This document shows positions 16,413-40,677 of a stretch of 40,677 bases of DNA, in pieces. This DNA is from Gammaproteobacteria bacterium (GTDB taxonomy: Bacteria > Pseudomonadota > Gammaproteobacteria > JAJDYQ01): NCBI GenBank assembly GCA_026196145.1, contig JAPHTU010000168.1, positions 1 through 40,677 on the forward strand, read 5' to 3'. Under the pieces are notes generated by a model. The model ran no database searches. It was given only the letters and a program-made list of their open reading frames with translations, and had not been told where the DNA came from. The translations under genes were made by a program, and so were the position numbers. How positions within the stretch are numbered: position 1 is the stretch's first letter; every line of letters starts with the position of its first letter.

Positions 16413-16422
16413 CGCTCTTCTA

Positions 16423-16956: not shown

Positions 16957-17053
16957 TCAAACATCTCCCTCATGCTGGCCTGCAATTGTTATTTACTGAT
17001 ATTGAGCGAGAATCGGCATTATGGCCAGTAGTCTGCTATGAACTGACAGTAAA

Positions 17054-24650: not shown

Positions 24651-24663
24651 CTGCGAGCCGATA

Positions 24664-25332: not shown

Positions 25333-26976
25333 TTAAAGCATCATACCTCTGATCATAAAATAGACCGCGGCAGAAAGAATTGCAGCAATAGGTACGGTGA
25401 TTACCCATGCAGCAATAATCTTTTTAAAGGCATCTCTTTTAACATACCGCTTCCTCTGAATAGAGTCGACAATTGTTCTTTCCTGTTCCAGGATTGCTTC
25501 CTCATGTTCAGTAAGTTCATAAAGTTTACCAATTTCTTTGTAAACTTTTTTATCCTTCTTCTCTTCAGGAAGATCCAATAACTCTTGCAGATTATCTCGA
25601 TATTGCTCAAGTTTATTTTCTTCTTTCTCTAGTTTTTTCTCTTCTTCTTCAAGCTTAATGACCTCTGCATGATCCTGTAGATACTCCCTTAGGAAACCAA
25701 CACCAAAGATTCCACCAATGGCTATATGAGTGGAACTGACTGGCAGCCCTAATTGACTGGCAATAATCACCGTAATTGCTGCGGCCATAGCAATGGAAAA
25801 TGCTCTCATCTGGTCCAGTTCAGTAATTTCTGAGCCGACCGTTTTGATTAGCTTTGGACCATATAATGCGAGACCAACTACAATACCAATCGCTCCAACG
25901 GCCATCACCCAAAGCGGGATACTGGCTTTTGATGAAATACCACCGGTTGCCACAGCATCACTAATTGCCGCCAGGGGGCCAATCGCATTCGCCACGTCAT
26001 TCGCACCATGGGCAAAACTCAATAGCGCGGCAGCAAAGATTAGAGGAAGGGTAAATAAGGTATTGATACTCTGTCTGTCATTCGTTAAATTTTGTCTTCT
26101 TGCAACAGACTTATTGACAAATATATAAACTATTACGGCCAGGATAAGACCCAAAATAGCTGCAATCACAAAACTGGGTTTTTTCTCATCCGGTAAAAAT
26201 ACCAGTAAGTCGACAATATCAGGCCAGACTTTCTTTAGCCCCTTTAAGGTCAGATAAGTGGTAAATGCCCAGGTCATAATCGCCACATAAACTGGTACCC
26301 AAAATTTACCGGCAGTCACCTTATCATCTTTGAAAACCATGGTTTTCTTAATAGAAAACAGGAAAATAGCAGCAATGATGCCGCCCAGTACCGGGGATAT
26401 TACCCATGAAGCAGCGATCTTACCCATGGTGCCCCAGGAGACAATGGCAAATCCTCCCGCAGCAATACCGGCGCCCATTACCCCGCCGACAATTGCGTGA
26501 GTGGTTGAAACTGGAGCGCCGAATTTAGTTGCTACGTTTAACCACAATCCTGCAGCAAGCAATGCTGCCATCATTGCCCAGATAAAAGCATCAGAATTCC
26601 CGCCAAAGGCTCCAATATCAATAATGCCTTTTTTAATCGTACCAACCACATCACCGCCGGCAATAAAGGCACCTGAGGCCTCAAATATGCCCGCGATAAG
26701 AATCGCTCCACCCATGGTCAAAGCCTTTGAACCAACCGCAGGACCTACATTATTTGCAACATCATTTGCACCAATATTCATCGCCATATAGGCGCCAAAA
26801 AGTGCCGCAATGACTAAGAATGCATTCGTCGGTAATTCGCCCATTGAGGTGTAACTCAATACAAGCACCACGATCATGAAGACTATGACGATACCGAACT
26901 TGATAAAATCACCTTTACTGCCTGATTCTGCTGCATCCTCCATCTCTTTAAACAACTCAAATTCTTTTTCTTTCAT
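25333..26976 (-). CDS. PiT (PHO4) family inorganic phosphate/anion transporter with a charged coiled-coil insertion
   Basis: Two GANDVAN signatures, PVSTTH and PVSSTH. More AT-rich than its neighbours by eye. Confidence 0.93.
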   Translation of the reverse strand: MKEKEFELFKEMEDAAESGSKGDFIKFGIVIVFMIVVLVLSYTSMGELPTNAFLVIAALFGAYMAMNIGANDVANNVGPAVGSKALTMGGAILIAGIFEASGAFIAGGDVVGTIKKGIIDIGAFGGNSDAFIWAMMAALLAAGLWLNVATKFGAPVSTTHAIVGGVMGAGIAAGGFAIVSWGTMGKIAASWVISPVLGGIIAAIFLFSIKKTMVFKDDKVTAGKFWVPVYVAIMTWAFTTYLTLKGLKKVWPDIVDLLVFLPDEKKPSFVIAAILGLILAVIVYIFVNKSVARRQNLTNDRQSINTLFTLPLIFAAALLSFAHGANDVANAIGPLAAISDAVATGGISSKASIPLWVMAVGAIGIVVGLALYGPKLIKTVGSEITELDQMRAFSIAMAAAITVIIASQLGLPVSSTHIAIGGIFGVGFLREYLQDHAEVIKLEEEEKKLEKEENKLEQYRDNLQELLDLPEEKKDKKVYKEIGKLYELTEHEEAILEQERTIVDSIQRKRYVKRDAFKKIIAAWVITVPIAAILSAAVYFMIRGMML

Positions 26977-27252
26977 TTAATAGCTTCCTCGTTGCAGATT
27001 TAAATTACTGGCATGCGGTGAAATAGAACACACTAACCATTTTGTAAGCCTTAATGTTTAGCCTTTCTTTTAATCACTTAGAATGAATTATTCCCTTCTT
27101 GCGTAGACCATAAATAATAGACAGTTCTTTATTATTATTAATAATGGACCCTATTGTTCGTTCCATTATCAAAGAGGGCATTATGGAAGAAATCTAAAAC
27201 AAATGGTCTGACTTGGGTCAATAGAAAGCTGGCTAGTTATTACCGCTAAGGG

Positions 27253-27381
27253 GCGGAGATTGATCTGAGTACGGAATGCGAATCATTCGATCACCCGCGT
27301 GGCCGAGAGAAGAGGTTTCTGAAGACCTGCGCTACCTCAATGTCTCTGGTAACCGAACCCTTTTGTAGTTGGGATAGCGAA
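27253..27381 (+). pseudogene. Degenerate duplicate of the last 44 codons of the CYTH gene (25006-25137)
   Basis: Manual alignment gives 109/132 identical positions, 20 substitutions, and 1-bp and 2-bp deletions. Confidence 0.9.
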
Positions 27382-27426
27382 GAGCAGACGAACACCCTTC
27401 CCGCTGGTGCTTATGTTCTGTCAGGA

Positions 27427-27733
27427 TTAAAGATACTTGACTCGCTCTTGAATGCTATCCAGATTTGATGAGGCGTCCTGTATGGCTACTGCCGTCATCC
27501 GACGAGCCGACAATAACACCCTTGCCAGATACTGGAATAACGGTATCTATCTGAAAACGGCCCTTGGTACCGCGCAGAAAGCATTCCTCGTCAAAAAACA
27601 GGCGATCGCCATCGGGCCCGATTTCATCCGATGTAATTGTGTCATAACCAATGACCCTGATGAGGTCTTCCTGACCCTCAATATTAATCTCTTCAATAAA
27701 CTGTGCTTCCGGGTTGATGACCAGTGCTTTCAT
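27427..27733 (-). CDS. Small DUF3846-like protein, probably with a 1-bp frameshift near 27487 (ORF as read ends at 27455)
   Basis: MKALVINP..EEINI, LFFDEE and GKGVIVG. The shifted frame continues AIQDASSNLDSIQERVKYL*. Confidence 0.6.
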
Positions 27734-27870
27734 AGTCTATACCTGTACCTGGTTACGATTAACGCACCCTAGTATCAGTCTCGGCATATGTATATTAGGA
27801 AATATTGGTATTATTATTCTGTATTTACTATCGCTGATATATCCCGGTGTGAACAGTGACCGGACTGATA

Positions 27871-28485
27871 TCACATACCATTAGAGAACCTGTCATCGTG
27901 AATCGATGTTACCTCACGCATGGCCTTTAATGCTTTTCCGTATCCGATAAGCATGTCCAAACACCAATCAAGCCTGTCCTTATAGTAGCTGTCCGCACGT
28001 TGATCATTGCTCCCAGGCTCAGGATTAAAGACTTTTTCAACATCACGAACGATGAGTTGCTCGGGGATATAGCAGAGCCGATTGTTCTTATAGCTACTCA
28101 TGCGCAGTTCTGCGACCGGGTATGCGCCACCGGTTGCAGAGGATACCGCAATGATAAATGCAGGTTTATGGCCTAGCTCAAACCGGCTAAACATCAGAAA
28201 GAAGTTTTTTAAGCCTGCCGGAACCTGCCCATGCCATTCGGGAACAATAATGACAAAGGCATCACTTTTCGATAATTGTTCTTTCAGGGGCGCCAGCCGC
28301 GTGACCCATGTTTCATCCTGCTCCCAAATGGATTGATCCCAGAGGGGTAATGGATTGTCCGCCAATGAATAGAGAAAGGGTTCGGTGTCATCAAACTTTT
28401 CATCGAGCAAGGATTCAACATACCGGCCAATTTTTTCGCTTTGCGAAGGGTTACGGTGGCTACCGCTAATAATGGTAATATGCAT
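27871..28485 (-). CDS. NADPH-dependent FMN reductase family (SsuE/ChrR-like)
   Basis: ISGSHR..SQS, DAFVIIVPEWHGQVPAGLKN, and KPA..AVSS..GG. Confidence 0.9.
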   Translation of the reverse strand: MHITIISGSHRNPSQSEKIGRYVESLLDEKFDDTEPFLYSLADNPLPLWDQSIWEQDETWVTRLAPLKEQLSKSDAFVIIVPEWHGQVPAGLKNFFLMFSRFELGHKPAFIIAVSSATGGAYPVAELRMSSYKNNRLCYIPEQLIVRDVEKVFNPEPGSNDQRADSYYKDRLDWCLDMLIGYGKALKAMREVTSIHDDRFSNGM

Positions 28486-28862: not shown

Positions 28863-30128
28863 TCAACCAAATATTCCCTTCAGAGTAAAGAAGAAGAATG
28901 CAGCCAGAACACCACCAACCGGTAGCGTAACAATCCATGAGATGATGATCTTACCAATAACCCGTAAATCCAGTGCACCGACACCACGCGCCAAACCAAC
29001 ACCCATGACCGCTCCAACCGCGATATGGGTTGTGGATACCGGAAGGCCTGTCTTGGATGCGATAACAACAGTCGTTGCGGCAGCGAGCGTTGCGCAATAA
29101 GCACGGGTTGGCGTCAAGGTGGTAATTTTGGTACCGATGGTTTCCATGACCTTGTAACCCATGGTCGCCAAACCGACAACAATACCGGTACCACCAAGAA
29201 CCAGAATCCAGAGTGGCAAGCCTGCCTTTTGTGTGACTTCACCCCCGCTACCGACGATTGAGACCACAGCGGCCAGGGGGCCAATACCGTTGGCCACGTC
29301 ATTGGAACCGTGCGCAAAAGCCATTGCGCAGGCCGTGAAGATCATCAGTGGTGTGAACGCCTTCTCAACGCTGGCGTAATGGAAGTCACGATCAGCTGCC
29401 TCATCTACCTTAACCTTGTTAATCATCGCACGGCCGATTACGGCGACAATGACACCAAAGATCGTGGCAACGACGAAACTCATCGGAACCGAGAGGTCGA
29501 CCTTGAGATGTTTCAGGCCCTTGAACAGGGTGACAAGAGAAACAATAAAACCAACCAGGAAGACATAGAATGGTCCCCATTTCCTTGCCTGCAAGAATGG
29601 GTGCTCGGTATTGAGGATAAGTTTTCGTACACTCAGCATGAGTATCAGTGCAATCGTACCGCCTATGAGGGGTGAAACCAGCCAACTGGCCACAATACCG
29701 CCGATCTTGCCCCAGTTGACCGCATCAATGCCGATGCCCGCCATCGCGAAACCGACAATTGCACCAACAATGGTGTGGGTGGTGGAAACTGGCCAGCCCT
29801 TGGTGGAGGCAACCATCAACCAGATAGCGGCTGCAAGCAGTGCCGCCAGCATCCCGTAAACCAGGATCTCCGGTGACCCGGTAATAGAACTTGGGTCAAT
29901 AATACCTTTACGGATGGTCTTGGTGACCTGTCCACCGGCGATAAAGGCACCGGCAAACTCAAAGATTGCGGCAATGATAATGGCCTGTTTGACCGTAATG
30001 GCGCCCGAACCTACTGACGTCCCCATCGCGTTGGCAACATCATTCGCGCCAATGCCCCAGGTCATGTAAAGACCGAAAACAACGGCTAGTGCAATAAAAA
30101 TGTAACCATAGCTTGATATGATTTCCAC
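28863..30128 (-). CDS. PiT (PHO4) family inorganic phosphate transporter
   Basis: GANDVANAMGTSVGSG, PVSTTH twice, and HGSNDVAN. GTG start at 30128 preceded by GAGGAG. Confidence 0.95.
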   Translation of the reverse strand: MEIISSYGYIFIALAVVFGLYMTWGIGANDVANAMGTSVGSGAITVKQAIIIAAIFEFAGAFIAGGQVTKTIRKGIIDPSSITGSPEILVYGMLAALLAAAIWLMVASTKGWPVSTTHTIVGAIVGFAMAGIGIDAVNWGKIGGIVASWLVSPLIGGTIALILMLSVRKLILNTEHPFLQARKWGPFYVFLVGFIVSLVTLFKGLKHLKVDLSVPMSFVVATIFGVIVAVIGRAMINKVKVDEAADRDFHYASVEKAFTPLMIFTACAMAFAHGSNDVANGIGPLAAVVSIVGSGGEVTQKAGLPLWILVLGGTGIVVGLATMGYKVMETIGTKITTLTPTRAYCATLAAATTVVIASKTGLPVSTTHIAVGAVMGVGLARGVGALDLRVIGKIIISWIVTLPVGGVLAAFFFFTLKGIFG

Positions 30129-30248
30129 TGTGAACTCCTCACTTTTTTGATGTACACGCTTTCGTAACGGGAATGCGTGTACGGTTATGTCAAATTTCCA
30201 GGTGCGGGGAACAACCCCTGGCCGGTTCATCCGGTCAGGGTTCTCTCC

Positions 30249-30929
30249 TTAACGTGCGAGCAACAGACGCATCCGGTCGCCAACTTTCTCGGCATAGTCG
30301 GCGAGATCGCCGATCCACTGGACCATCTGATACCAGAACATGACCGATACCGCGCTCATGTCATCCTCTTTTGAAAACAGGGTGCGGGTAAGCGCCATGC
30401 CCATCTCGTCTGTTTCATCCTCGATCAAGTTCAGCTCCTCGACCATCTCCTGCACCTTTTCGGCCTCATAACCGCGGAAGCCCATTTCGACCAGTTCATC
30501 CAGTTCCTCTATGATGCTTGCCGAGCATTTACAGGTATCCACACAGCGGTTCACCAGCGCCAACAGCGGCTCTGCCATGTCTTCGGGCACTGACATTTTT
30601 CTTTCTACGAGCAGGCCGGCTATATCCTGGGCTGTGTCGGCAATACTGTCCTGCATACCGAGGACTTCAAGTAGATCGCGGCGATCGACCGGCATGAACA
30701 GGCTCTTGGGCAAATGGACCCTGAGGTTATTCTTTATTTCATCTGCCTCATGTTCCTTGGCAAAAATACGCTCCTTGTGCTCGGCGACACTGTCCTGATT
30801 GTCCGCAATAAGCGCCTCGAATAATCCGGGGACTTCTGCAACACATTCAGAAACCACCCTCATGTGTTCCTGAAGCGGTTTGAACGGGGAATGCCCCATC
30901 AAGGCGGCAAGTGGATTCGTTGTTTTCAT
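30249..30929 (-). CDS. DUF47/TIGR00153 PhoU-like phosphate transport regulator
   Basis: SPFKPLQEH, EHEADEIK, FMPVDRRD, QDSIAD and IGDLADYAE, directly upstream of a PiT gene. Confidence 0.92.
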   Translation of the reverse strand: MKTTNPLAALMGHSPFKPLQEHMRVVSECVAEVPGLFEALIADNQDSVAEHKERIFAKEHEADEIKNNLRVHLPKSLFMPVDRRDLLEVLGMQDSIADTAQDIAGLLVERKMSVPEDMAEPLLALVNRCVDTCKCSASIIEELDELVEMGFRGYEAEKVQEMVEELNLIEDETDEMGMALTRTLFSKEDDMSAVSVMFWYQMVQWIGDLADYAEKVGDRMRLLLAR

Positions 30930-31157
30930 TAGGCTCTCCATCTTTCAAATCAGAAGCAACTTCGACAAATAAACGCCAAGCACATCCTGCTAAGTATGGA
31001 TATTATTACTCGCAGGACAAGTATTAAGTGTGGAAAAGCTAATCCAGGTCAATATTCGATGGAAAATTATACCCAGCTCCCCATTGATCGCCAGGCGGCG
31101 ATTGCGGTCAGCCGCTTGATGACTTTATATGCCGTATCTCACCACGATTATCACCCC

Positions 31158-31430
31158 TCAGGATGAAACACTGAGGCGCTTTTTACTGCCCTTTTTTTTG
31201 CTTTCTTCCTGCCAGCTGATTCTTATGTTGACGCGCTGGCGGTTATCTTCCTGGCTGGCAGTGAGCTTGAGCTCAAGCAGACCATCGGGCTTCATCACAA
31301 TCTTGTCGTCTTCATCGCTGAAGACCAGTTTGCCTTTCTCGATTCCCTCTGTAACTGCTTCCAGAATTTTTCTGATCGATTTCGTGTCCTGCAGTGAATC
31401 GTGTCTGAAGCTGTTTTTACTCTGTCTCAT
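31158..31430 (-). CDS. Amphi-Trp domain protein (GAK-system associated)
   Basis: 90 aa with an amphipathic helix (SIRKILEAVTEGIEKG), beta strands, the conserved ISW near the end, and a basic tail. Confidence 0.8.
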   Translation of the reverse strand: MRQSKNSFRHDSLQDTKSIRKILEAVTEGIEKGKLVFSDEDDKIVMKPDGLLELKLTASQEDNRQRVNIRISWQEESKKKGSKKRLSVSS

Positions 31431-31472
31431 GTCACTTCCCGTTGTGAGGTTGCGGTGTGTTAGCCTTATTGG

Positions 31473-32441
31473 TTATTTGCTGTATTGCTTCTCGAGCGCA
31501 AGAATCATTGGGCCGAGTTCATCCTGCCTGACCAGGCTGGCGGCCTGTACAGCCGAGGTCCACTGCCGCGTGCGGTGGCTTTCTTCCCATTCATTTTCCG
31601 GGATGACATGACTGACCTCCAGTGTATAGACATCAACTACACAGGTCGCACCCCATTTATCATATCGATATTGACCGATAGCCTCCGCATTGACCGTTCC
31701 CTTCACACCGGCCTCCTCTTTTGCCTCATGGGCAGCCGACTCCTGCGCTGTCAGTCCAGGCTCATGGATGCCTTTTGGTACAACCCAGTGCTTTTTCTTG
31801 CTGGATCTAACAATCAGAATTTCTACCTTTCCATCACGTACGCGGTAGGGAATCACGGAGGACTGGTTGTAATAGTAGGCAGGACGGTCCCGGTATTCCT
31901 GAGCCTCCATCAACGGCCAGGGGAATTTTTTCGGCAGTGTGCGCGGGCGTATAAGCCTGATCAGCTTTGCACTTCCCTGCTTCAGGTTTGACCAGTCTTC
32001 ATCTGTTTGCAGTATAGCCAGGGTAGCGGTTGGTAATAACTTGCCATCTTCCTCCGGTGCGGCCTCGCCATTCGTCAGCGTGATCAGAAACTCCTCCATA
32101 CCGGGATTGTGTCCCACCAGCATGACGCGCTCCAGCTGGTCCGGTATTTCCCTGATTACATCAAATAAATCATCAACATCAGCGAGATAGATACGTTTAT
32201 CCTTCACGATAAGTGCCGACCCTTCTCCCATGGCCTTGCAGGATTTCTCGGCCGTTACCAGCGCGCGCTCTGCAGGCGAACTGATAACTTGCTGCGGCAC
32301 CATATCATGGGTGGCCAGCCATACCCCCATGCGCTGCGCACCGCGTTTGCCCCGATCGGTTAGCGGCCGGTCAAAATCATCGGCATCCACATCCCAGTCG
32401 GATTTTCCATGTCGAAGTAACAGCAGTTCACGAGTCACCAT
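31473..32441 (-). CDS. Fusion of a SixA-type phosphohistidine phosphatase and a NUDIX hydrolase
   Basis: LLRHGKS, RPLT.RG, SSPA.RA and VGHNPG, followed by WVVPKG..E..AAHEAKEEAG. ATG 32441 preceded by GGAGG. Confidence 0.9.
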   Translation of the reverse strand: MVTRELLLLRHGKSDWDVDADDFDRPLTDRGKRGAQRMGVWLATHDMVPQQVISSPAERALVTAEKSCKAMGEGSALIVKDKRIYLADVDDLFDVIREIPDQLERVMLVGHNPGMEEFLITLTNGEAAPEEDGKLLPTATLAILQTDEDWSNLKQGSAKLIRLIRPRTLPKKFPWPLMEAQEYRDRPAYYYNQSSVIPYRVRDGKVEILIVRSSKKKHWVVPKGIHEPGLTAQESAAHEAKEEAGVKGTVNAEAIGQYRYDKWGATCVVDVYTLEVSHVIPENEWEESHRTRQWTSAVQAASLVRQDELGPMILALEKQYSK

Positions 32442-32609
32442 TCTTCCTCCCGCTAAATACAATGTGACCTTTGCATGGAAGATAACCAGTAAAGGTCTGT
32501 CAATAAATACGTCATTCCCGAGCGCTTTCATCGGGAATCTAGCAAACTTTATCCTCTGGATCCCTGATAAAACCTTCGGGGATGACCGTAGAATTATCGT
32601 GCAAAAGGC

Positions 32610-33698
32610 TCACAGCAAATGGCCAAGTTGATTTTCCGCTTCTGCAAAATCAATTCGCCCGGTTACCTCGTAGATTGTTACACCATGCAACGCGTCCAGG
32701 TAGGACTGTTCATCAAACTCTGCGGTATCACTATGAAAACTGCCGTCTGTGTACTGATAAAACGGCCCCGGCGATTTCATCAGTGCCGCCAGCAGTTCAC
32801 GCCGTTGCCCGATATCCACCGACGTTACCTGCGTTGGCTGTGCCGAGTCACGCTGCCAGTTCAGGATGACAAAGGCCTTCAGATCGGCCTCGGTGGAAAC
32901 CCGCTGTGGTCCGTAGACCTGCTCGACGTGCACATCGTATTTCTCCTCCAGTACCCATAGTTCTTGCGCTGGAAAACGTAGCAGCTCCTCACGACGCTCA
33001 CTTGAAATCAGACCATGTAACCTCGGATTATGTACGATGGTACCCGGGTTGATACGTGGTAATTTCGGAATACCGCGCGCCAGCACACCGCCATTATCTC
33101 GACGAATAAACAGGCGATCATTGGTGAGGTAATTCACATGATTGTTTTCAAGCAGGTTTAACATCAGGGTCGACTTGCCACCACCGGAAAGTCCGGCCAT
33201 ACCCACGCCGTGGCCGTTAATCTCCAGACCGGAGGCATGGCAAATCAACCAGCCGTTATGCTGCAACCAGTTCATGTACTGGGAATTGATATAGTTAATC
33301 ACCTGATTGTCATACTGCAGACACGGGCCCGCGGCGATCAGTGCAGTCTCACTTTGCAGGAACAACATGCCGGTACGCACCTTGAGCACAACACGCGCCC
33401 CGGGGATATCAAAATAGGCATCCTTGCGGCCCGTCTTGCCCGGCTCACGCGCCCAGTCGATAAAATCCAGCTTCGAATCCACGACCTCACGCTCAATGGC
33501 GAGGATCTCAATATCCGGTTCAGCGCTACCGGGCTTCACATGTGCAAAATATGCCGCCAATTGCTCGATTACCGGCAACTGGTTGGAGCGTATGCGCATC
33601 GTATAACCGCCGAGGTCGAGATCCAGTGACTCATCAAGCACAACGGCATCACCCATAAGTATGTGAATCAAGGAATTCAGATCTATTTCTTCATGCAT
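32610..33698 (-). CDS. HprK-related kinase B (GAK system)
   Basis: CHASG, Walker A GLSGGGKST, NDRL, PKLPRINPGT and LMKSPGPFY. Confidence 0.85.
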   Translation of the reverse strand: MHEEIDLNSLIHILMGDAVVLDESLDLDLGGYTMRIRSNQLPVIEQLAAYFAHVKPGSAEPDIEILAIEREVVDSKLDFIDWAREPGKTGRKDAYFDIPGARVVLKVRTGMLFLQSETALIAAGPCLQYDNQVINYINSQYMNWLQHNGWLICHASGLEINGHGVGMAGLSGGGKSTLMLNLLENNHVNYLTNDRLFIRRDNGGVLARGIPKLPRINPGTIVHNPRLHGLISSERREELLRFPAQELWVLEEKYDVHVEQVYGPQRVSTEADLKAFVILNWQRDSAQPTQVTSVDIGQRRELLAALMKSPGPFYQYTDGSFHSDTAEFDEQSYLDALHGVTIYEVTGRIDFAEAENQLGHLL

Positions 33699-33733
33699 AT
33701 GATGTTCCCGCTATTTATTACCTGTTATTCGAC

Positions 33734-34297
33734 TTAATCCGTCAGCAGACTGGTGCGAATATCATGAATCAATGGTTGAGCCTGTTCCAGTTGTCGCACC
33801 CGCTTCCATAGCAGGTCTGGTGTGTGCATATAGATATCCAGCAGCCGCTCCCCTTCTACCCAGACCAGTTCCCGGCGTTTCTTGAAGCGTCCACTGGTAT
33901 CGGATTCCCACTCACTGTTCAGTGCCGAGATGTCACGCCAGGGGAATTCAATAAAGTAGGTTCGCCAGTCTTTGGGCTTTTCCGGGTTATCCGTCTGCCT
34001 GCGACGCCACCAGTGCGGGTGCGCAGTCAGTGTCTGCTCAAATAATTCATCAACGTCCTTGATCTGCTGCCTTATTCGCTCCTCTGATCGACGCGCGACT
34101 TTCAGGTCATCGGCGAGATACATGGTTTCAGTCTCCTCGACAAACTCCCTTACCGCCGTCGAGCGATAGTCTTCACCATCCCCGAGCCCGCCACCGAAGT
34201 CGATCAAATGGCCAACCTTTCTACCGGTGAAAGTCTTCTGGAAAAGAAACAGAACTTCACCTTGGTAAACTGTAAGCGGGATAACACCTGCTCCCAT
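33734..34297 (-). CDS. NUDIX hydrolase
   Basis: GAGVIP and Nudix box FGGGLGDGEDYRSTAVREFVEET. Confidence 0.88.
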   Translation of the reverse strand: MGAGVIPLTVYQGEVLFLFQKTFTGRKVGHLIDFGGGLGDGEDYRSTAVREFVEETETMYLADDLKVARRSEERIRQQIKDVDELFEQTLTAHPHWWRRRQTDNPEKPKDWRTYFIEFPWRDISALNSEWESDTSGRFKKRRELVWVEGERLLDIYMHTPDLLWKRVRQLEQAQPLIHDIRTSLLTD

Positions 34298-34418
34298 GAA
34301 CGGATTCCTGCTGCAAATATTTTTTCTATCTTCATAATAGCACCTTCCCTGTGCAAGTTCGTGCCGACTACACTAAAGCAGGTTAACAGGGAAATCACTT
34401 GTGAATCAGGAGATGCAA

Positions 34419-35567
34419 ATGCAAGTCAGGCTAATGAGCTGGAATATGGCCGGTGCCAAGCTGTTCGATCAGCTTGACCCGGAACCGGCGCCTGCTGCAG
34501 GCAGATACATACAGGCATTCCACAAGGCGTGGAACGACAGTATTGTTCCCTGGCTGGCAACACCGGATAAAGATGCACCTGATATTATCCTGCTACAGGA
34601 ATGCATCGGCTTCGAGGATCACTCCAGCTCTCCCTCCGGGCGCTGGCAAAGCGGTAACGAGATACTCAGTAAAATTTTTTCCGGGTATCAGTGCTTCTTT
34701 TTTCCTGCCGTGACCTCACACGATAATCCGCATCCCGGCAAGTGGAGCCGCTATACCAATGGTAATGCCGTGGCGAACCCTGTGCCCACAGCGGTTGATA
34801 TACAACAGGGTTATGGAATCTGTGTACGCGAGGGAATCATCAGCGCCAAACTATGGACACCCTGGCCAGATCCACAGGATGCACCGCCTGATGCCGATCA
34901 GGCTAACGGCGAATGCACATCATGTTTCGAGGTCATCCCTGTTTCTACCGGACTGTATCTGGGTGATCGCGATACCGAACCCCGTATGGTCATTATGGGG
35001 CGCGCGAAATTAGAGTTAGATGGCGAATATCGCTACCTGAACTACCTGAATGTGCACCTGAATACATTCAAGGATGAGCGCGAGGGTAATGAGCAGCTCG
35101 ACCAACGTGCCAGTATTTCCCGACAGCAACAGGTCGGACTGATACTCGAGAATATTGTCTCGGCATACCAGCAATCAACACATTATCGTATGCATAGCCA
35201 CGCCGACGATAACAAGTCTGATATCTGGATTATTGCCGGTGACTTTAATTGCACGCCGGATTCAGCCGAAATTGCGGCAATACTAAACGCAGGCTTTGTT
35301 GACGCTATCAATGACAAACACATCGAAGATGCCGATCCTGCTCATACCCTTCAGGACAGGGTCGGCACAAAATGGTCCATCAATGATGACGAATGCCCAC
35401 CTGTTGTACTGGATCATATCTTCTGCGGGCTGGAACAGCCTACCCTGACAAGCGATACACTTGAAACAAGTGCATCAAAGCGTCCGTTCAGACCATGCTT
35501 TGATGACAAGGCGTATGAGACTGATCATGCGGTGTTATTTGCCAAGATCAGATTGCCGGGATCATAA
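34419..35567 (+). CDS. Endonuclease/exonuclease/phosphatase (EEP) family protein
   Basis: SWNM, DIILLQE, NVHL, AGDFN, LDHIF and TDH. ATG 34419 follows AGGAG (ORF from 34401). Confidence 0.85.
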   Translation: MQVRLMSWNMAGAKLFDQLDPEPAPAAGRYIQAFHKAWNDSIVPWLATPDKDAPDIILLQECIGFEDHSSSPSGRWQSGNEILSKIFSGYQCFFFPAVTSHDNPHPGKWSRYTNGNAVANPVPTAVDIQQGYGICVREGIISAKLWTPWPDPQDAPPDADQANGECTSCFEVIPVSTGLYLGDRDTEPRMVIMGRAKLELDGEYRYLNYLNVHLNTFKDEREGNEQLDQRASISRQQQVGLILENIVSAYQQSTHYRMHSHADDNKSDIWIIAGDFNCTPDSAEIAAILNAGFVDAINDKHIEDADPAHTLQDRVGTKWSINDDECPPVVLDHIFCGLEQPTLTSDTLETSASKRPFRPCFDDKAYETDHAVLFAKIRLPGS

Positions 35568-35668
35568 TCCACTGATAATACCGGGCCAATCTGTTATCCC
35601 TTGCAAAGAAAAACTAAAGGTTATGAAGTTCATCGTATATCTCAGGAAGTTACGCTAGTATTTCATGC

Positions 35669-36772
35669 ATGGATAAGCAGGTGACCGATTATTACCAGGT
35701 ACTGGGCGTGCCGCGCGATGCCGATGAAGCAGCAATTAAAAACGCCTATCACAAGCTCGCCATGAAGTGGCACCCAGATCGCAATGATTCGCCGGAGGCA
35801 GAAGATAAATTCAAGGAAATCGCTACCGCCTATGCCATCCTGAAAGATCCCAACAAGCGTGCACGCTATGACACCCAGGGTATGGAGGGCGTTGCACATT
35901 TTACCCCGGACGACCTGTTCGGTGGCCTGGATATGGGCGACCTGTTTGGCGACATGGGCTTTGGTTTTGGCGGCAGCAGTATTTTTGATCGAATGTTTGG
36001 TGGTGGTCGGCGCGCAAAGCAACCCACTCACGGCCAGGATCTACGTATCCGTGTAGAAGTACCGCTGGCGCTTATTCACACAGGCGGCAGGCAGAAGATA
36101 AATGCCAGCCATCCGGTATCCTGTGATGCCTGTCATGGTTACGGTACGGCAGATGGCAAGGCCCCTGCCCTGTGCAAGGCATGTAATGGCTCCGGGCGTC
36201 AGGCTGTATCACACAATGAAAAACGTGGTGAACAAACGGTACAGATACAACAAATTACTGTTTGTCCGGCCTGTGGCGGCAAAGGGACACAGATTGAAGA
36301 CCCATGCAAGACCTGCGGCGGTTATGGCAAGGTAGAAAAACAGGAGGCGCTGAACATTACCATCCCGGCAGGTATTGAGGATGGCACCGTACTTCGGATA
36401 CCAGGTCATGGGTTACCGGCAGATAAACCGGAACTACCGCCAGGTGACCTGCATGTCTCTGTATTTTCGCAGCCTGACCCACGCTTCCAGCGACGTGGTG
36501 CAGACTTGTGGCGTCAGGAAACCATCGAAGCTGTGGATGCAATCCTGGGCAGTGAAATCGAGGTCCCAACGATTGATGGCATGGTCAAGGTAAAGATACC
36601 TGCTGGTACGCAGCCTGACGAAATCCTGCGTCTGAAGGGCAAGGGGCTAGCCCGCTATCAAGGTCCTGCACCGGGTGACCTGAACCTGCGTATTATTGTT
36701 CATATACCTGAAGACCTCAGCGAGGAAGACAGAAAGAAGTTCGAGGAAATCAGGGTATCAGGTAGCAAATAA
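35669..36772 (+). CDS. dnaJ: Class A DnaJ-family co-chaperone (possibly a paralogue; no adjacent dnaK)
   Basis: J domain with HPD, a G/F-rich linker, four CxxCxGxG repeats, and the C-terminal substrate domain. Confidence 0.93.
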   Translation: MDKQVTDYYQVLGVPRDADEAAIKNAYHKLAMKWHPDRNDSPEAEDKFKEIATAYAILKDPNKRARYDTQGMEGVAHFTPDDLFGGLDMGDLFGDMGFGFGGSSIFDRMFGGGRRAKQPTHGQDLRIRVEVPLALIHTGGRQKINASHPVSCDACHGYGTADGKAPALCKACNGSGRQAVSHNEKRGEQTVQIQQITVCPACGGKGTQIEDPCKTCGGYGKVEKQEALNITIPAGIEDGTVLRIPGHGLPADKPELPPGDLHVSVFSQPDPRFQRRGADLWRQETIEAVDAILGSEIEVPTIDGMVKVKIPAGTQPDEILRLKGKGLARYQGPAPGDLNLRIIVHIPEDLSEEDRKKFEEIRVSGSK

Positions 36773-36790
36773 GCTGATTCCTGTCATTTC

Positions 36791-37357
36791 ATGAGCCCGG
36801 GACAACACTTCATCATCAGCTGGGTAACGGCAAATACAGTCAGTCTGGACAGGAAGAGCAGAATTTTTATCACACTGTCAGGGTTGATACCTGACGTTGA
36901 TGGTATTGGTTATATTGTTGACCGGGTGGCTGCCTATCTTGGTTCCAGTACTACTTACTATGAAGATTTCCATCACATCTATACACATAATCTCTTGACT
37001 GGCCTTGTGTTCGCCATCATATGCTCAATCATTTGTGGAAAGCGTATGGTCGTGTTCTGGCTATCACTGCTGGCTTTCCATTTACACCTGTTGTGTGACA
37101 TTGCAGGAGCCAGAGGACCCGACGGAGACCAGTGGCCAATACCCTATTTCTACCCTTTTCTCCCTGATATACAATTAGTCTGGTCTGGCCAATGGGAGCT
37201 AAGCTCCTGGATCAATTCTGCTTTTGGCATCTCTTTCTTTATCATTGCGCTGATAATAGCAAGATACCGCCATGTGACATTCTTTGAGTTATTCTCATTA
37301 CGCTTTGAAAAGCTGGTAGGTGAAGTTGCAACCAGAAGAGGTTTTTTCAAGTCCTGA
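36791..37357 (+). CDS. YdjM-like membrane metal-dependent hydrolase
   Basis: N-terminal His, PDVDG, HH.YTH and HLHLLCD among TM helices. Confidence 0.8.
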   Translation: MSPGQHFIISWVTANTVSLDRKSRIFITLSGLIPDVDGIGYIVDRVAAYLGSSTTYYEDFHHIYTHNLLTGLVFAIICSIICGKRMVVFWLSLLAFHLHLLCDIAGARGPDGDQWPIPYFYPFLPDIQLVWSGQWELSSWINSAFGISFFIIALIIARYRHVTFFELFSLRFEKLVGEVATRRGFFKS

Positions 37358-37374
37358 TCGTAGACCAGAAACTA

Positions 37375-38706
37375 TTACTCAAGTAACAGGGTCGGGTCGA
37401 ACTCCTTGATGTAGGGATAGTCGTTACTGATACCGAGTATATGACCCTCCGGACGGATAATGGTGACAGCCGCGCCCGTACCTTTCAGGCCTTCCTTTTT
37501 ACGTGAGTTGCGATCGAGTGTGGTGTCGCATTCAACATTGAGCATGCCTTTGCGCAACATGAGCCGTTGCCCGTGCACCAGGTTCCGGTGCCCATGCACA
37601 ATGATACGGATTCCCTTCCGGTGGATTTTGTTCACTCCGTTACGTGTTAACGGCATGTCGACCTCGCGGTACTTGGTGCGCATGATGTTGGCGAAGGGGC
37701 CGTAATAGAAATCAAACGGATTATCGAACATCAGTTTGCGAAACCGCTTGTTCAGGTATTTCCAGCTTTTATCATTGAGTGTGGCAGCGATCCGGTCATC
37801 CACGCCTGCGTGTAGAAACAGAAACGAACCACTGCGATAACACAGTCGCATGCGTTGATAGAACCAGGCAAACTCGCCCTTTGGATGCAGGAACAACTCC
37901 TGCCATTTCATGGCCGCCGCAAATACGGCACGCAGCGATAAATTCGCCTTAACGATATCTTCATCAAACTGGGCGATTTTTTCACGCAGCTTGCTCACTT
38001 CCTTTTTAATCGTTGGATCAGGCATGGTCCAGGTGGCCAGCTTTGGAAACTCACGGAACCAGCTCTTTGGCGGATACAGCAGCCGCTGACACTGGCGGGT
38101 ACTCGGCATGCCGCGCAAGGTATCTTTGCCCTGCAGGTACTGATCATTAATCTCCTTTAAAAAGGGCACCATCTTGCGTCCCATGCGGATAAAAAAATGA
38201 TCCGTTCTTGGATCGGGATCAAGATTGATGCTACGAATACCCAGCATCATACGGATGTCGTGGTTACCGGCCAGGATCATCACATCGGCATGTTTATCGA
38301 TGAGTACCTTGATGACACGCAGCAGGCGCAGTGTGCTCGGCCCCTTGTCGAAACAGTCACCACCGATGAGAAAGCGACCTCGGCAACCCGCGCGGGTCAG
38401 CTTGATGTCCTTGTCTCGCGGCCCGGTTTTTTTGACTACGCCGGTAGCGACCAGTGATGCGATAAAGGCATCGGCATCACCGTGTATATCGGAAATGAAG
38501 TAAATGGAACGCTTTGGCCACTTCCAGCGCTGCTTGCCGATAGCCTTGCCAAACTCCTTGTAGTAGGCCGCGCTGTGGTAGCTGTCCTTTTTGACCGAGC
38601 GCCCCCTGCCCATCAACCAGTGTTGACTTTCGGTCGGCAATTTAATGCCTGTCCATTTCTCACCGCGGTAATGCGGCAGCATGTCTTTTTGATTCTTCTT
38701 GCCCAT
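37375..38706 (-). CDS. Calcineurin-like metallophosphoesterase, strongly basic
   Basis: SDIHGD, GDCFDKG, GNHD, HAG and HGH. The start is coupled to the upstream stop (TGATG). Confidence 0.9.
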   Translation of the reverse strand: MGKKNQKDMLPHYRGEKWTGIKLPTESQHWLMGRGRSVKKDSYHSAAYYKEFGKAIGKQRWKWPKRSIYFISDIHGDADAFIASLVATGVVKKTGPRDKDIKLTRAGCRGRFLIGGDCFDKGPSTLRLLRVIKVLIDKHADVMILAGNHDIRMMLGIRSINLDPDPRTDHFFIRMGRKMVPFLKEINDQYLQGKDTLRGMPSTRQCQRLLYPPKSWFREFPKLATWTMPDPTIKKEVSKLREKIAQFDEDIVKANLSLRAVFAAAMKWQELFLHPKGEFAWFYQRMRLCYRSGSFLFLHAGVDDRIAATLNDKSWKYLNKRFRKLMFDNPFDFYYGPFANIMRTKYREVDMPLTRNGVNKIHRKGIRIIVHGHRNLVHGQRLMLRKGMLNVECDTTLDRNSRKKEGLKGTGAAVTIIRPEGHILGISNDYPYIKEFDPTLLLE

Positions 38707-39404
38707 CAATCAGTGAAATCTGAATTTGTTTTCCTAAGCTTCCATTCACCTTCAATATGATGCCAGCTGCCATCTTCCAGTAACTCCAGAAATACCGGCT
38801 GACCATGAAACATACTCAGGCGTGCAATCTGCTCGTATTCCAGCACCCCGAGGTGAAAGGCGGCATGCCGAAACGCTGCCCCATGACCAACAAAGAGCTT
38901 TAGTGTATCTCGTTCGACTCGTAGTGATGACATACGCCTTGCCAGGTGGGCCGCAACACGTTCACCAGCTTCAAGTAGTGATTCGGCTCCCTGCAATGGC
39001 AGGCGATACTCGCTATTGGACTTCCAGTCTTGCGGTAAATCAGGATAACGCGGGTCGTTATGAATAATCTCGGCTATTTGCGCGACTGTCAGATTGGCAG
39101 CACAGCCGACGCTACGTTCTGCCAGTTCATCAAAACTTTCTAACCGCAGTTCCGACTTTTCAGTTCCCGCTAAACTCCCGACAATAATGTCTGCAGTCTG
39201 CCAGGCCCTGAGCATATGAGAACAATCAACTATCTCGCTCAACTTCCAGTCATTGTGTGCCATCACATCATCAATAACAGCTGCCGCTTCTCGCGCATGG
39301 CTTTCACCATCTGCATTAATCGGGAACGGCTGATGTGCACTTGGCACACCCGGCATTTGATGATAATCGCCATGCCTGATGATGGCGGCGATACGTCTAG
39401 CCAT
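38706..39404 (-). CDS. Histidine phosphatase (phosphoglycerate mutase-like) family protein
   Basis: IIRHG, S..LRAWQTA, LAER, GAES and VGHG. The start overlaps the ATP-grasp gene stop. Confidence 0.9.
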   Translation of the reverse strand: MARRIAAIIRHGDYHQMPGVPSAHQPFPINADGESHAREAAAVIDDVMAHNDWKLSEIVDCSHMLRAWQTADIIVGSLAGTEKSELRLESFDELAERSVGCAANLTVAQIAEIIHNDPRYPDLPQDWKSNSEYRLPLQGAESLLEAGERVAAHLARRMSSLRVERDTLKLFVGHGAAFRHAAFHLGVLEYEQIARLSMFHGQPVFLELLEDGSWHHIEGEWKLRKTNSDFTD

Positions 39405-40281
39405 TCTGTTGCAGTTCCTGCATGACATGCTCGACATACAATGCAGCTGCATCAATACCTATCCCGTCTTTGGCACCCTGGAAACCGCCGAATGCCGATA
39501 CCTCAAAGACAATCGGGCCGTTATCCGTTTCCGCAACATCGACGGTAGTAAAATCCATATTGAACAGCTCCTGCGCGCGGTGTGCGAGTTCAATTACGCT
39601 ATCGTCCGGTGTGTGGGCTTCATAACGTCCGCCGCTATGAATGGTTGTATTCCATGCATCACTCTGTGAAACCCTGGCATAACTGCCAAGATAGCGACCG
39701 GCAAGAAATACCATCCCCAGGTCCCTGCCCGGCAGTTCTATTTTGCGTTGTATGTACATCATAGGATTGTCTGCCTTGAAATCGCGTATCGCCTGTTCCA
39801 TACCTGCCTGGTTCGAATCAATGATGGTCATGCCGCGTGCCTTGGTTGAATACAGTGGCTTAAAGACGGCGCTACCAAATTGCCTGACTGCGTCAGCAGC
39901 AGCATCAATATCTTCGGTCACCCGGGTATCCGGCATCGGGATACCTGCGTTACGCAAAGTAACGGTACAACTTAGCCGATCGATTAGCCGTAACATACTC
40001 TCGGCCGGGCTGAATACGCGTACACCCGCCCCTTCTGCGATCCGTAGCAGCTCGAGACGATCCAGCGTGGATGGCGAGTAGACTGCACTGATCTTCTTGA
40101 CGATCAGTGCGTCCAGTTCGCAAAGATTATTATCTCCAACACGCAAACTATTGTTCACAAGGTCGAGACTGACATCGGCCATATCTATCACCAGCCGAAA
40201 ACCAGTCTGCCGTTCAACCGCATCGGCAAGGGTCTCGGTGGACCATTTACCGGGTATACCGATAACTCCAATCTTAAGCAT
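39397..40281 (-). CDS. GAK-system ATP-grasp enzyme (RimK-like)
   Basis: GIPMPDT, VFKPLYSTKARGM, YIQR, WNTTIHSGG, VDV and FEVSAFGGF. ATG at 40281. Confidence 0.88.
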   Translation of the reverse strand: MLKIGVIGIPGKWSTETLADAVERQTGFRLVIDMADVSLDLVNNSLRVGDNNLCELDALIVKKISAVYSPSTLDRLELLRIAEGAGVRVFSPAESMLRLIDRLSCTVTLRNAGIPMPDTRVTEDIDAAADAVRQFGSAVFKPLYSTKARGMTIIDSNQAGMEQAIRDFKADNPMMYIQRKIELPGRDLGMVFLAGRYLGSYARVSQSDAWNTTIHSGGRYEAHTPDDSVIELAHRAQELFNMDFTTVDVAETDNGPIVFEVSAFGGFQGAKDGIGIDAAALYVEHVMQELQQNG

Positions 40282-40677
40282 TGAATATCTCCCGAACCGG
40301 TACTTGAAAGTTTGATGCCTGCTTCTTGTCGGTTGCAAGCACTTGCTCCATCAGATAGCGGGCGCGCAACCACATTGCCCTGGCCAGCGTTTTGTCGAGC
40401 ACAAAACGGGTTGAAGTGGCGAAGGATCGCGCCAGACCAAGTGCCAGTCGGATATTGAAGGAACTGTCACCGACCCTGTTGGCATGGGCCGCAGCAAAAT
40501 CGTAGATGCTGCAACTCTGCTCCATGATGCGTCGACGCAGCTCTGGTTCCACGACACGCAGGCGATAGTTGGATACCATAAATACCGAAATATCCTGTAC
40601 ATAGTCCATATAACCGGAACGGTGCAGGTCGATGAAATTAATCTTCTTTTCCAGCGGGTCGTAGATGATGTTGTCCA
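40274..40677 (-). CDS. C-terminal part of an APH/choline-kinase-like phosphotransferase, truncated by the window edge
   Basis: The frame stays open to the window end and reads DNIIYDPLEKKINFIDLHRSGYMDYVQDISVF (end of the catalytic loop plus a DFG-equivalent IDL). Overlaps the ATP-grasp start by 8 bp. Confidence 0.75.
   Translation of the reverse strand, partial: DNIIYDPLEKKINFIDLHRSGYMDYVQDISVFMVSNYRLRVVEPELRRRIMEQSCSIYDFAAAHANRVGDSSFNIRLALGLARSFATSTRFVLDKTLARAMWLRARYLMEQVLATDKKQASNFQVPVREIFNA

Follow-up and report, generated by a model that had tools for sequence, protein, structure and literature searches.

The GAK (grasp, amphipathic, kinase) gene set is a known but uncharacterised bacterial system, and the locus described here, carried by what its nearest relatives indicate to be an uncultured gammaproteobacterium, is a phosphatase-rich proteobacterial form of the GAK operon that is genuine, rearranged in its lineage and split in two. 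The window, meaning the whole stretch of DNA that was analysed, is the entire 40,677-nucleotide (nt) contig JAPHTU010000168.1 (here C33) of assembly GCA_026196145.1, which comprises 2.8 Mb in 359 contigs and is rated 93.8% complete. Public sequencing runs with partial copies of the stretch are marine-sediment metagenomes. The constant link of GAK to inorganic phosphate (Pi) is the fusion of a PhoU domain to one of its kinases, and the locus is a candidate for a phosphate-status control system. Tentatively, GAK may be read as a cycle, gated by phosphate, that makes and breaks a highly phosphorylated small molecule to which the small protein amphi-Trp would bind, a reading that is possible rather than probable.

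Polyphosphate (polyP) is universal, and to our knowledge the control of its synthesis in bacteria is poorly understood; should GAK produce a messenger of phosphate status or modify a protein of the granules, it would fill a gap in the phosphate biology of bacteria. Literature searches (amphi-Trp, HprK-related kinase, the model accessions, and the enzymes together with polyP) found no study of the GAK system, in keeping with the statement of an earlier reading made from the letters of this DNA (the sequence-only reading) that it has no demonstrated function. The system is widespread, and its function is testable at the bench because cultured carriers exist (Marinobacterium, Thalassospira, Roseibium, Halomonas and others). 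Experimental handles include a kinase fused to a putative Pi sensor, a DIPP-like Nudix domain, a kinase of predicted PEPCK architecture, a small protein of unmatched fold, and the contact of the operon with a CHAD-ParA gene pair. New here are a contig join, the CHAD-ParA contact, the likeness of kinase B to PEPCK in its build, the Nudix domain of DIPP-like type, a putative metallophosphatase-amphi-Trp fusion, and the restriction of strong linkage to polyP genes to one clade.

Layout and conservation of the GAK locus

Gene content was established from an open reading frame (ORF) listing with Pfam and NCBIfam scans. The GAK system is covered by five NCBIfam models (TIGR04354-TIGR04358), four of which score above their cut-offs in this genome. 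Three of these are in the window (TIGR04354, TIGR04355 and TIGR04356), and the fourth, TIGR04357, identifies the CofD-like member on contig C269 of the same genome (G000:C269:5877-6980; 563.5 bits, cut-off 340). The model search that the sequence-only reading had proposed thus bears out its GAK assignment, and its remark that the CofD-like member lies outside the window was correct. The fifth model, XXXCH (TIGR04358), has no match in this genome (93.8% complete) or in any of 14 control genomes. The genes of the locus, from the contig end inwards, are as follows.

40274-40675, minus strand: C-terminal 133 residues of a PhoU-APH/ChoK-type kinase fusion, running off the contig end
39397-40281, minus strand: GAK ATP-grasp ligase of RimK/MptN/LysX type (TIGR04356, 450.8 bits, cut-off 300)
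38706-39404, minus strand: histidine phosphatase, branch 1 (PF00300, 51.4 bits; RHG and GHG motifs)
37375-38709, minus strand: calcineurin-like metallophosphoesterase, PPP/ApaH-like, 444 residues (PF00149, 31.6 bits)
36791-37357, plus strand: YdjM-like membrane protein (PF04307, 34.9 bits)
35669-36772, plus strand: DnaJ-like co-chaperone with J, zinc-finger and C-terminal domains (PF00226, PF00684, PF01556)
34401-35567, plus strand: endonuclease/exonuclease/phosphatase (EEP) family protein (PF03372, 40.9 bits)
33734-34297, minus strand: stand-alone Nudix protein, first gene of block 2 (PF00293, 25.5 bits)
32610-33698, minus strand: HprK-related kinase B (TIGR04355, 335.8 bits, cut-off 200)
31473-32441, minus strand: SixA-like-Nudix fusion (PF00300 and PF00293, the latter 36.5 bits)
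31158-31430, minus strand: amphi-Trp protein, 90 residues (TIGR04354, 68.3 bits, cut-off 31)
30249-30941, minus strand: DUF47/PhoU_div protein, partner of the following PiT; a neighbour, not part of GAK (PF01865, 194.5 bits)
28863-30230, minus strand: PiT-family phosphate transporter; a neighbour, not part of GAK (PF01384, 400.4 bits)

The kinase fragment, grasp, histidine phosphatase and metallophosphatase form block 1, the stand-alone Nudix, kinase B, SixA-Nudix and amphi-Trp genes form block 2, and a plus-strand trio of EEP, DnaJ-like (TIGR02349, 343.7 bits, under the cut-off of 377) and YdjM-like genes separates these two minus-strand blocks. Block 1 is tight, with the kinase stop 2 nt from the grasp ATG and with overlaps between the grasp and histidine phosphatase genes and between the histidine phosphatase and metallophosphatase genes. 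The EEP gene is divergent from the kinase B block, and a gap of 216 nt lies between amphi-Trp and the DUF47-PiT pair. The junctions Nudix/EEP, EEP/DnaJ, DnaJ/YdjM and YdjM/metallophosphatase are bridged by contigs from four other public runs, and the plus-strand insert is therefore not an assembly chimera. The sequence-only reading was right in content and wrong in layout. Every gene that it named is present on the minus strand, and the first four, which it described as overlapping, are closely packed, but the single same-strand run that it envisaged is interrupted by the plus-strand trio, which its gene list omitted together with the Nudix gene at 33734-34297, and DUF47 and PiT fall outside the interval of 31158-40677 to which it had assigned them.

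A scan of a species-level genome collection returned at least 573 GAK-related stretches, the best 80 of which (grasp identity 64-85%, nearly all from Pseudomonadota) were compared by blastp using this genome's proteins (E ≤ 1e-5, coverage ≥ 50%). The canonical order among these loci is a divergent CofD-like gene, Nudix, PhoU-kinase, grasp, kinase B, SixA-Nudix, histidine phosphatase, metallophosphatase and amphi-Trp. Component counts were restricted to the 61 loci with enough flank, and PhoU-kinase and kinase B are each present in 61/61, amphi-Trp in 58/61, the histidine phosphatase in 56/61, the metallophosphatase in 55/61, SixA-Nudix in 51/61, Nudix in 44/61 and the CofD-like gene in 37/61. 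In a phylum sample of 301 genomes, the grasp scores above its cut-off in 12, this one included, and a thirteenth hit is truncated at the end of its contig. The order in the 11 other phylum-sample loci is PhoU-kinase, grasp, kinase B, SixA-Nudix (4/11), histidine phosphatase (10/11), metallophosphatase and amphi-Trp (10/11), and the one locus without a visible amphi-Trp gene, G249, is on a contig that ends inside the metallophosphatase gene.

By comparison with the GAK system as covered by the NCBIfam models, the PhoU-APH-type kinase, SixA-Nudix, histidine phosphatase and metallophosphatase are near-constant here, and none of them matched a GAK-named model in the NCBIfam scans. The order in the window differs as well, the operon being split by the plus-strand insert and lying directly behind CHAD-ParA. 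The window's arrangement (grasp, histidine phosphatase, metallophosphatase, EEP on the opposite strand, Nudix, kinase B, SixA-Nudix, amphi-Trp) is common to the five nearest loci, L054-L058. Two of them, L054 and L055, have it in full, L056 stops after the Nudix gene, and EEP is missing from L057 and L058. The EEP gene thus occupies the window position in three of the five (L054, L055 and L056), and L097 has one elsewhere. The stand-alone Nudix gene at 33734-34297 is a lineage accessory found in 6/80 loci, the YdjM-like gene has no match in the 80 loci, and DnaJ is absent from L054-L058. The layout of the window is a lineage-specific rearrangement of a conserved operon.

Components of the operon

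The truncated gene at the end of the window encodes a PhoU-APH-type kinase, because its two fragments tile the full-length relatives. The N-terminal portion of about 414 residues is on C269 (L002:3-1226), and in an alignment with 22 full-length relatives (about 546 residues) the C269 fragment ends at KAPFSVY and the window fragment starts at DNIIYDP, leaving only the seven residues IHGDFNV (about 17 nt, the catalytic loop in relatives) in the gap between the contigs. No exact overlap exists between the ends of C33 and C269, and the join is based on the protein tiling and on synteny, with ParA, PhoU-kinase and grasp found together in L055. Read towards the window, C269 carries PFOR, HSP20, CofD-like, Nudix, CNNM, CHAD (528 residues) and ParA-type ATPase genes, followed by the PhoU-domain protein that runs off its end; the CofD-like gene lies about 4.6 kb upstream of the PhoU-kinase start. 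The stand-alone Nudix protein of C269 matches only generic MutT-type entries in a sequence search of the Protein Data Bank (PDB).

The kinase alignment has 25 rows, among them the genome's own two fragments, and Pfam scans identify PhoU (PF01895) in 24 of these rows, APH in 23, EcKL in 23 and choline kinase in 11. Profile searches of the PDB match positions 18-221 to residues 33-239 of PhoU 4q25 (E 1.3e-10) and positions 401-445 to APH(3') 4feu (E 1.1e-4). A glycine-rich loop, the lysine of an AIFK motif, HGDFNVDN and FIDLHRS are near-invariant in the relatives, which thus show an H-x-D-x4-N catalytic loop (IHGDFNVDN) and a downstream metal-binding aspartate (FIDLHRS). The genome's own kinase shows DN...FIDLHRS, with the H-G-D part falling inside the contig gap. 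The fragment in the window has no Pfam match by itself, and the "APH-like" label that the sequence-only reading gave it is demonstrable only through full-length relatives; its question whether the truncated gene has an N-terminal PhoU domain is answered in the affirmative by the 546-residue fusion that the two fragments tile. The C269 fragment scores 53.7 bits against the full-length PhoU equivalog TIGR02135, under the cut-off of 130. The PhoU fusion is found in 61/61 loci with room for it, and in 11/11 of the other phylum-sample loci holding that part of the operon.

The predicted structure of kinase B places it among the P-loop kinases of the PEPCK/HprK superfamily, with two domains in a PEPCK-like arrangement. 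It carries the P-loop GLSGGGKST, in which S171-T177 are invariant in 43 sequences, and it misses the HprK family models (PF07475, 20.8 bits, cut-off 33.3; TIGR00679, 22.6 bits, cut-off 240). The AlphaFold2 (AF2) model, with a predicted local distance difference test (pLDDT) score of 93.9, superposes on the ATP-dependent PEPCK 2pc9_B with Z 16.2 and a root-mean-square deviation (rmsd) of 4.2 Å over 300 aligned residues at 13% identity, spanning model residues 4-362 and chain residues 80-452. The best HprK/P chain, 2qmh_L (Z 13.5, rmsd 2.2 Å, 128 aligned), covers residues 150-362 only. Across HprK/P chains the alignments begin at residue 148 or 150 and end at 362 (Z 12.8-13.5, rmsd 2.2-3.1 Å, 128-139 residues, 16-22% identity), and residues 3-147 are covered by PEPCK chains. 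The PEPCK-like build is proposed because PEPCK covers the whole model and HprK/P only its C-terminal half. Identity to PEPCK is 12-13%, PF01293 is absent from the Pfam matches of kinase B, a profile search against PDB sequences returned P-loop matches only, and the genome has no PEPCK gene with which to align it.

The grasp protein matches TIGR04356 over the ORF 39397-40338 and the RimK domain PF08443 with 47.8 bits (cut-off 21). Other named models score under their cut-offs, including MptN at 150.2 bits, rimK_fam at 102.1 (cut-off 143.4) and LysX at 92.4 (cut-off 275.6), and CofF scores 35 bits. Its solved relatives are RimK, LysX and ArgX (E 1e-18 to 1e-16), and all of its PDB matches are of this type, with no inositol-phosphate kinase among them.

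With regard to the hydrolases, the best named model for the histidine phosphatase is CobC, at 33.4 bits and under its cut-off, and the profile of the metallophosphatase has weak PDB matches to ApaH 2dfj (E 0.0026), the PnkP phosphatase 4j6o and the Shewanella PPP-type enzyme 2z72. The SixA half of the SixA-Nudix fusion retains the RHG motif and scores 57.0 bits against the sixA equivalog TIGR00249, under the cut-off of 74.5; in the PDB it matches a "putative SixA", 2rfl (E 4.5e-20), and E. coli SixA, 1ujb (E 2.6e-6). The Nudix half is, by sequence search, closest to diphosphoinositol-polyphosphate phosphohydrolases (DIPP), with human DIPP1/2/3 matched at E 1.3e-13 to 5.7e-13 over chain residues 17-131 of 148 and weaker matches to Ap4A hydrolases (1e-9 to 1e-8) and yeast Ddp1 (1e-9). 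The DIPP/Ddp1 family of Nudix enzymes includes endopolyphosphatases and cleaves polyP too. DIPP-type enzymes are described in a 2026 review as promiscuous on molecules bearing phosphoanhydrides (PMC13573052). PDB sequence searches returned no solved relative of the EEP protein and no match for the stand-alone Nudix protein at 33734-34297.

Amphi-Trp is present in a single copy in this genome. It combines an N-terminal F-x-H-x-S-L-Q-D motif, one helix, four strands, an invariant tryptophan and a disordered tail, and its AF2 model (pLDDT 85.6) has coil at residues 1-15 and the helix at 16-32, followed by the four strands and the tail. The fold has no convincing counterpart in the PDB (best Foldseek E 1.1; best VIA-align Z 2.9 against 48,161 chains), and a search of the ESM Atlas returned amphi-Trp clusters only. 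A cullin, the best match of a sequence profile in the PDB (E 0.026), was considered as a relative and judged to be a chance match. Among 53 proteobacterial sequences, G33, P48 and W73 are invariant and F8, H10 (49/53), S12 (51/53), D39 (52/53) and K55 (51/53) nearly so; in distant forms H10 and S12 are replaced by Y and A in G244 and by A in G232. The tail after the tryptophan has a median length of 17 residues and is acidic first (2.4 D/E in seven) and then basic (mean 4.0 K/R). Its last residue is K in 31 sequences, G in 8, S in 4, R in 4 and another residue in 6, and 4/53 tails are without Ser or Thr. A role as C-terminal substrate of the RimK/LysW type was ruled out by this unconserved C-terminus, and the variable C-terminus together with the replacement of H10 and S12 in distant forms means that amphi-Trp has no universal acceptor.

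A search for fused forms, made for amphi-Trp only, found a single sequence, P0001 (550 residues), that joins a metallophosphatase portion (42% identity over 402 residues) to an amphi-Trp portion (33% over 73). It gives a weak hint that the two proteins may act together. P0001 may be a genuine fusion, or two adjacent genes run together by a frameshift. An amphi-Trp protein of Dissulfuribacter thermophilus, DITHS69_2464, is reported among the 20 most abundant proteins of that organism under one growth condition (PMC13490349).

The phosphate and polyphosphate neighbourhood

Beyond the DUF47-PiT pair, the window holds an island of genes for phosphate and polyP metabolism.

14583-16460, minus strand: Na/Pi-cotransporter-PhoU fusion (NaPi-PhoU)
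16423-16956, minus strand: Usp
17054-19348, minus strand: PPK1
19574-22440: two CNNM/CorC transporters
22543-24090: two-domain PPK2
24508-25140: CYTH
25333-26976: second PiT

Genes for Pi or polyP (PPK1, PPK2, PiT, DUF47, NaPi-PhoU, CHAD or CYTH) are in the available flanks of 19/80 loci; where the flanks extend 4 kb or more to either side of the locus, the count is 11/49. The sequence-only reading had asked for linkage to ppk, pit and phoU genes to be quantified, and the outcome is uneven: linkage is strong among the nearest loci (16/26) and weak among the others (3/54; L097, L113 and L132), so that strong linkage of GAK to polyP genes is a feature only of the window's own clade. Because the genomes are related, the locus counts are not independent. 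The phrase "leading into a Pi transporter operon" in the same reading describes a local situation, as DUF47-PiT is beside GAK in 4/80 loci and downstream of amphi-Trp on the same strand in 2. Its broader tie to phosphate is sustained by the PhoU fusion and, in this genome, by the packing of the operon behind CHAD and ParA.

Since blastp with this genome's proteins cannot detect pst or pho genes, flanking ORFs were also scanned with Pfam, covering 142 ORFs from 13 diverse "unlinked" loci (half of the 289 ORFs in 26 loci selected). Phosphate-related neighbours were found in 3/13, namely PsiE (L086), a Na/Pi cotransporter (L101) and a phosphodiesterase with a PLD protein (L083); the other 10/13 have no phosphate-related neighbour, and no pst or phoBR genes are in the flanks of the 13. 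A search for the E. coli-type Pho box (CTGTCAT-N4-CTGTCAT, up to 3 mismatches) returned 6 sites in the window versus 3.85 expected, with no site between GAK genes and 0 sites on C269. A promoter and terminator scan gave results at chance level, and an Rfam scan of the window at gathering thresholds found no family.

The scarcity of Pi and polyP genes at distant loci, the unrelated neighbours of most scanned loci, the lack of an E. coli-type Pho box that stands out here, and the HSP20 and DnaJ-like genes nearby would all fit a view in which the phosphate setting is incidental, GAK being a stress or dormancy switch, or a maker of a cofactor unrelated to Pi, that landed in a polyP island in this clade. 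That view is improbable. Every complete locus has the kinase in fusion with PhoU, CHAD-ParA is joined to GAK in at least four arrangements, three of the 13 "unlinked" loci have PsiE, Na/Pi-cotransporter or phosphodiesterase genes beside them, and five or six phosphohydrolase domains lie within one operon.

On C269, the CHAD and ParA genes share 4 nt, and 16 nt separate the end of ParA from the kinase ATG; by their spacing CHAD, ParA, PhoU-kinase, grasp, histidine phosphatase and metallophosphatase look like one transcription unit. CHAD-ParA adjoins GAK in 16/80 loci, in at least 4 arrangements, and in 2/11 other phylum-sample loci (G249 and G185). These repeated and differently arranged joins argue for selection. 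Among the 12 GAK-bearing genomes, 6 have CHAD, with 7 CHAD genes in all and 3 adjacent to GAK, and 6 are without a CHAD gene. CHAD domains are described as binding polyP (PMC6537752), and according to a 2026 preprint it is undefined how well-studied bacteria place their polyP granules, and no function is known for CHAD proteins (PMC13081873).

The CHAD-ParA pair is a candidate polyP-granule positioning system in its own right, of which the papers found give no description. Homologues of the ParA protein (ParA2; E ≤ 1e-30) occur in 24 genomes of a class sample of 151, including this genome and G435, a genome flagged as unpublished, and CHAD is directly upstream on the same strand in 17/25 non-self loci, the G435 locus being among the 8 without it. 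Such pairs often adjoin PPK2, PiT, CYTH, PPK1 or a SixA-like gene, mostly without GAK, and this genome is the only one among the ParA2 loci surveyed with PhoU-kinase within 1.5 kb. A second CHAD-ParA pair in this genome is at G000:C101:5912-7524, the first being at 1243-3575 on the minus strand of L002 (G000:C269). Stand-alone SixA-like genes, matching the SixA half only, adjoin CHAD-ParA in L135, L139, L146 and L152, with no adjacent GAK gene in the 1.5-kb flanks, which suggests that SixA-like phosphatases are part of polyP neighbourhoods more generally. The arrangement of the pair resembles ParA/MinD cargo positioning, as in the McdA-McdB system of carboxysomes, in that a ParA ATPase is directly behind a cargo-binding CHAD protein; it differs in that this cargo and partner are not described in the papers found, and the pair is on the adjoining contig rather than in the window.

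The close packing of CHAD, ParA and PhoU-kinase invites a further explanation, in which GAK belongs to a polyP-granule organising apparatus with amphi-Trp as a granule coat or adaptor. The lysine-rich tail of amphi-Trp would bind polyP and its basic N-terminus would contact ParA, CHAD would bind the granule and ParA would set its position, with the enzymes adjusting the adaptor or trimming the polyP surface. The acidic-then-basic tail, the position of amphi-Trp directly after CHAD-ParA in G185, the polyP binding of CHAD domains, the endopolyphosphatases of the DIPP-type family and the abundance of the Dissulfuribacter protein are consistent with it. Nevertheless it is improbable: 64/80 loci are without CHAD-ParA within reach, half of the 12 GAK-bearing genomes are without any CHAD, CHAD-ParA pairs occur without GAK directly behind them, as in the ParA2 survey above, and the tuning of an adaptor would hardly call for two kinases, a ligase and a CofD-like protein.

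Several other features of the window stand beside these. The NaPi-PhoU, Usp and PPK1 trio (14583-19348, minus strand) is found in the same order beside GAK in L054, L071 and L073. A dynamin-family GTPase gene is at 10854-12404 on the minus strand, within the polyP island, and in L159 (40-3008) a homologue with 46% identity directly precedes a ParA2-like gene and PPK1; dynamin, ParA and PPK1 may form a recurring association. A second orphan ParA/MinD-type ATPase gene (2875-3513) overlaps the start of a gene for a TPR protein (1865-2878), both on the minus strand. An AcrB-family transporter of 1437 residues (4647-8960, minus strand) has about 345 C-terminal residues without a Pfam match, ACR_tran ending at 1092. 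A stretch of about 900 nt (26977-27870) between PiT and an FMN reductase gene holds short ORFs only, and is contained in the bin with the lowest GC of the window (26001-28000, 0.435), where no Rfam family was found.

Substrates and the proposed cycle

The small-molecule cycle builds on what was observed, namely which genes are present, the families and folds of their products, synteny and the fusion to PhoU. From these we infer the chemical steps, gating by Pi, a small-molecule substrate and the role of amphi-Trp. On the making side, PhoU would act as a cytoplasmic Pi sensor gating the APH/ChoK-type kinase to which it is fused, the PEPCK-fold P-loop kinase B would be a second maker kinase, the MptN/RimK-type ATP-grasp would attach an amino acid to a carboxylate, and the makers would further include the CofD-like phosphotransferase of C269. 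The breakers would be the SixA-like protein with its DIPP-like Nudix domain, one or two further Nudix proteins, the branch-1 histidine phosphatase and the PPP/ApaH-like metallophosphatase. Amphi-Trp would be non-catalytic, binding or carrying the product with its invariant tryptophan as a stacking or anchoring residue and working beside the phosphatases. In this organism the cycle would be wired to polyP granules and Pi transport, with block 1 behind CHAD-ParA and block 2 followed by DUF47-PiT, inside the PPK1/PPK2/CYTH/NaPi/CNNM island.

A small molecule is favoured as the substrate because most relatives of the enzymes act on small molecules (APH/EcKL/ChoK, the PEPCK build, MptN, CofD, three Nudix domains, and ApaH-like enzymes), and because amphi-Trp is without a universal acceptor site. 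A biosynthetic parallel is the assembly of the side chain of F420 and methanopterin (CofD with CofF/MptN), where a CofD-family protein is likewise found with a grasp; MptN is the best foreign model of the GAK grasp, at 150 bits, and in both cases a phosphodiester would be transferred first and glutamate added as a cap afterwards. The parallel is limited in that a CofC/FbiD-type nucleotidyltransferase, FO synthase and CofE were not seen in the locus, the scores are far under equivalog cut-offs, and the two kinases and five phosphohydrolase domains of GAK are without counterpart.

A further elaboration of the small-molecule cycle, offered as an analogy of logic and not of descent, would make GAK the bacterial counterpart of eukaryotic inositol-pyrophosphate signalling, which is rather unlikely. 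A PhoU-gated kinase pair, the ATP-grasp and the CofD-like protein would build a pyrophosphate-bearing messenger at ample cytoplasmic Pi; the DIPP-like Nudix domain, histidine phosphatases and ApaH-like metallophosphatase would remove it; and amphi-Trp would be the receptor that signals to polyP synthesis, CHAD-ParA granule handling and DUF47-PiT transport. In eukaryotes, Pi-regulated enzymes that fuse a kinase to a histidine phosphatase are described as setting the level of the messenger that drives polyP synthesis (PMC13573052). The eukaryotic system of PPIP5K/Vip1, DIPP/Ddp1 and SPX shares with GAK the opposition of kinases to a histidine phosphatase and a DIPP-like Nudix, a Pi-sensing domain, and a link to polyP and Pi transport. 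The GAK histidine phosphatases are of branch 1 and not branch 2, its grasp is RimK-type, its sensor would be PhoU and not SPX, and no inositol-phosphate enzymes were seen at GAK, so that the likeness is one of logic only.

Several observations weigh against the small-molecule cycle. A CofC/CobU-type nucleotidyltransferase, needed for CofD-type transfer, was not seen in the operon, and no product is known. Every solved relative of the grasp acts on small proteins (RimK on S6; LysX and ArgX on LysW). The C-terminal half of kinase B is nearer to HprK/P (18-22% identity, rmsd 2.2-3.1 Å) than to PEPCK, and the known substrates of SixA, as described in the literature, are phosphohistidine proteins. 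Amphi-Trp, the sole non-enzyme of the core and once fused to a metallophosphatase, fits a protein substrate at least as well as a binding partner. The neighbourhood adds the rarity of linked Pi/polyP genes outside the nearest clade, the ten scanned loci with no phosphate-related neighbour and the six GAK-bearing genomes that lack CHAD.

These same points bring forward the explanation that amphi-Trp is a covalent target, an HPr-like phospho-switch with Pi setting the balance, which is somewhat unlikely in itself and almost as likely as the small-molecule cycle. Kinase B and/or the PhoU-kinase would phosphorylate a residue such as H10 or S12 before the helix, the grasp would add glutamate to a carboxylate, and removal of the marks would fall to the SixA-like domain, the histidine phosphatase and the PPP-like metallophosphatase. 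Proteins of the HPr type are substrates of HprK/P and of SixA alike, and HprK/P is able to work with pyrophosphate and Pi. The GAK set shares with the HPr kinase/phosphorylase and SixA pair an HprK-fold P-loop domain (Z 13.3-13.5 for the C-terminal domain of kinase B), a SixA-like phosphatase and a protein partner of about 90 residues, and SixA is described as dephosphorylating NPr (PMC7948535). Amphi-Trp is also the only non-enzyme of the constant core, always last in the canonical order and behind a phosphatase; P0001 may be a natural fusion of amphi-Trp with the metallophosphatase; and H10, S12, D39 and K55 are kept in most proteobacterial sequences. The relation of the grasp to RimK (S6) and to LysX/ArgX-LysW, its closest solved structures, extends to a small protein encoded alongside.

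The differences from these protein-modifying systems are substantial. No acceptor residue of amphi-Trp is invariant in distant forms, and its C-terminus is unconserved and without the acidic end kept in S6 or LysW, while the grasp scores under the rimK_fam cut-off (102 bits versus 143). Kinase B is under the HprK cut-offs, with an N-terminal half covered by PEPCK chains and not by HprK/P chains, the SixA half is under its own (57 versus 74.5), and the amphi-Trp fold is unlike that of HPr and has no PDB match. The CofD-like protein and the three Nudix domains would have no role in simple protein phosphorylation. A complex prediction from alignments for kinase B with amphi-Trp (score 0.00, mark 0.32) weighs neither way.

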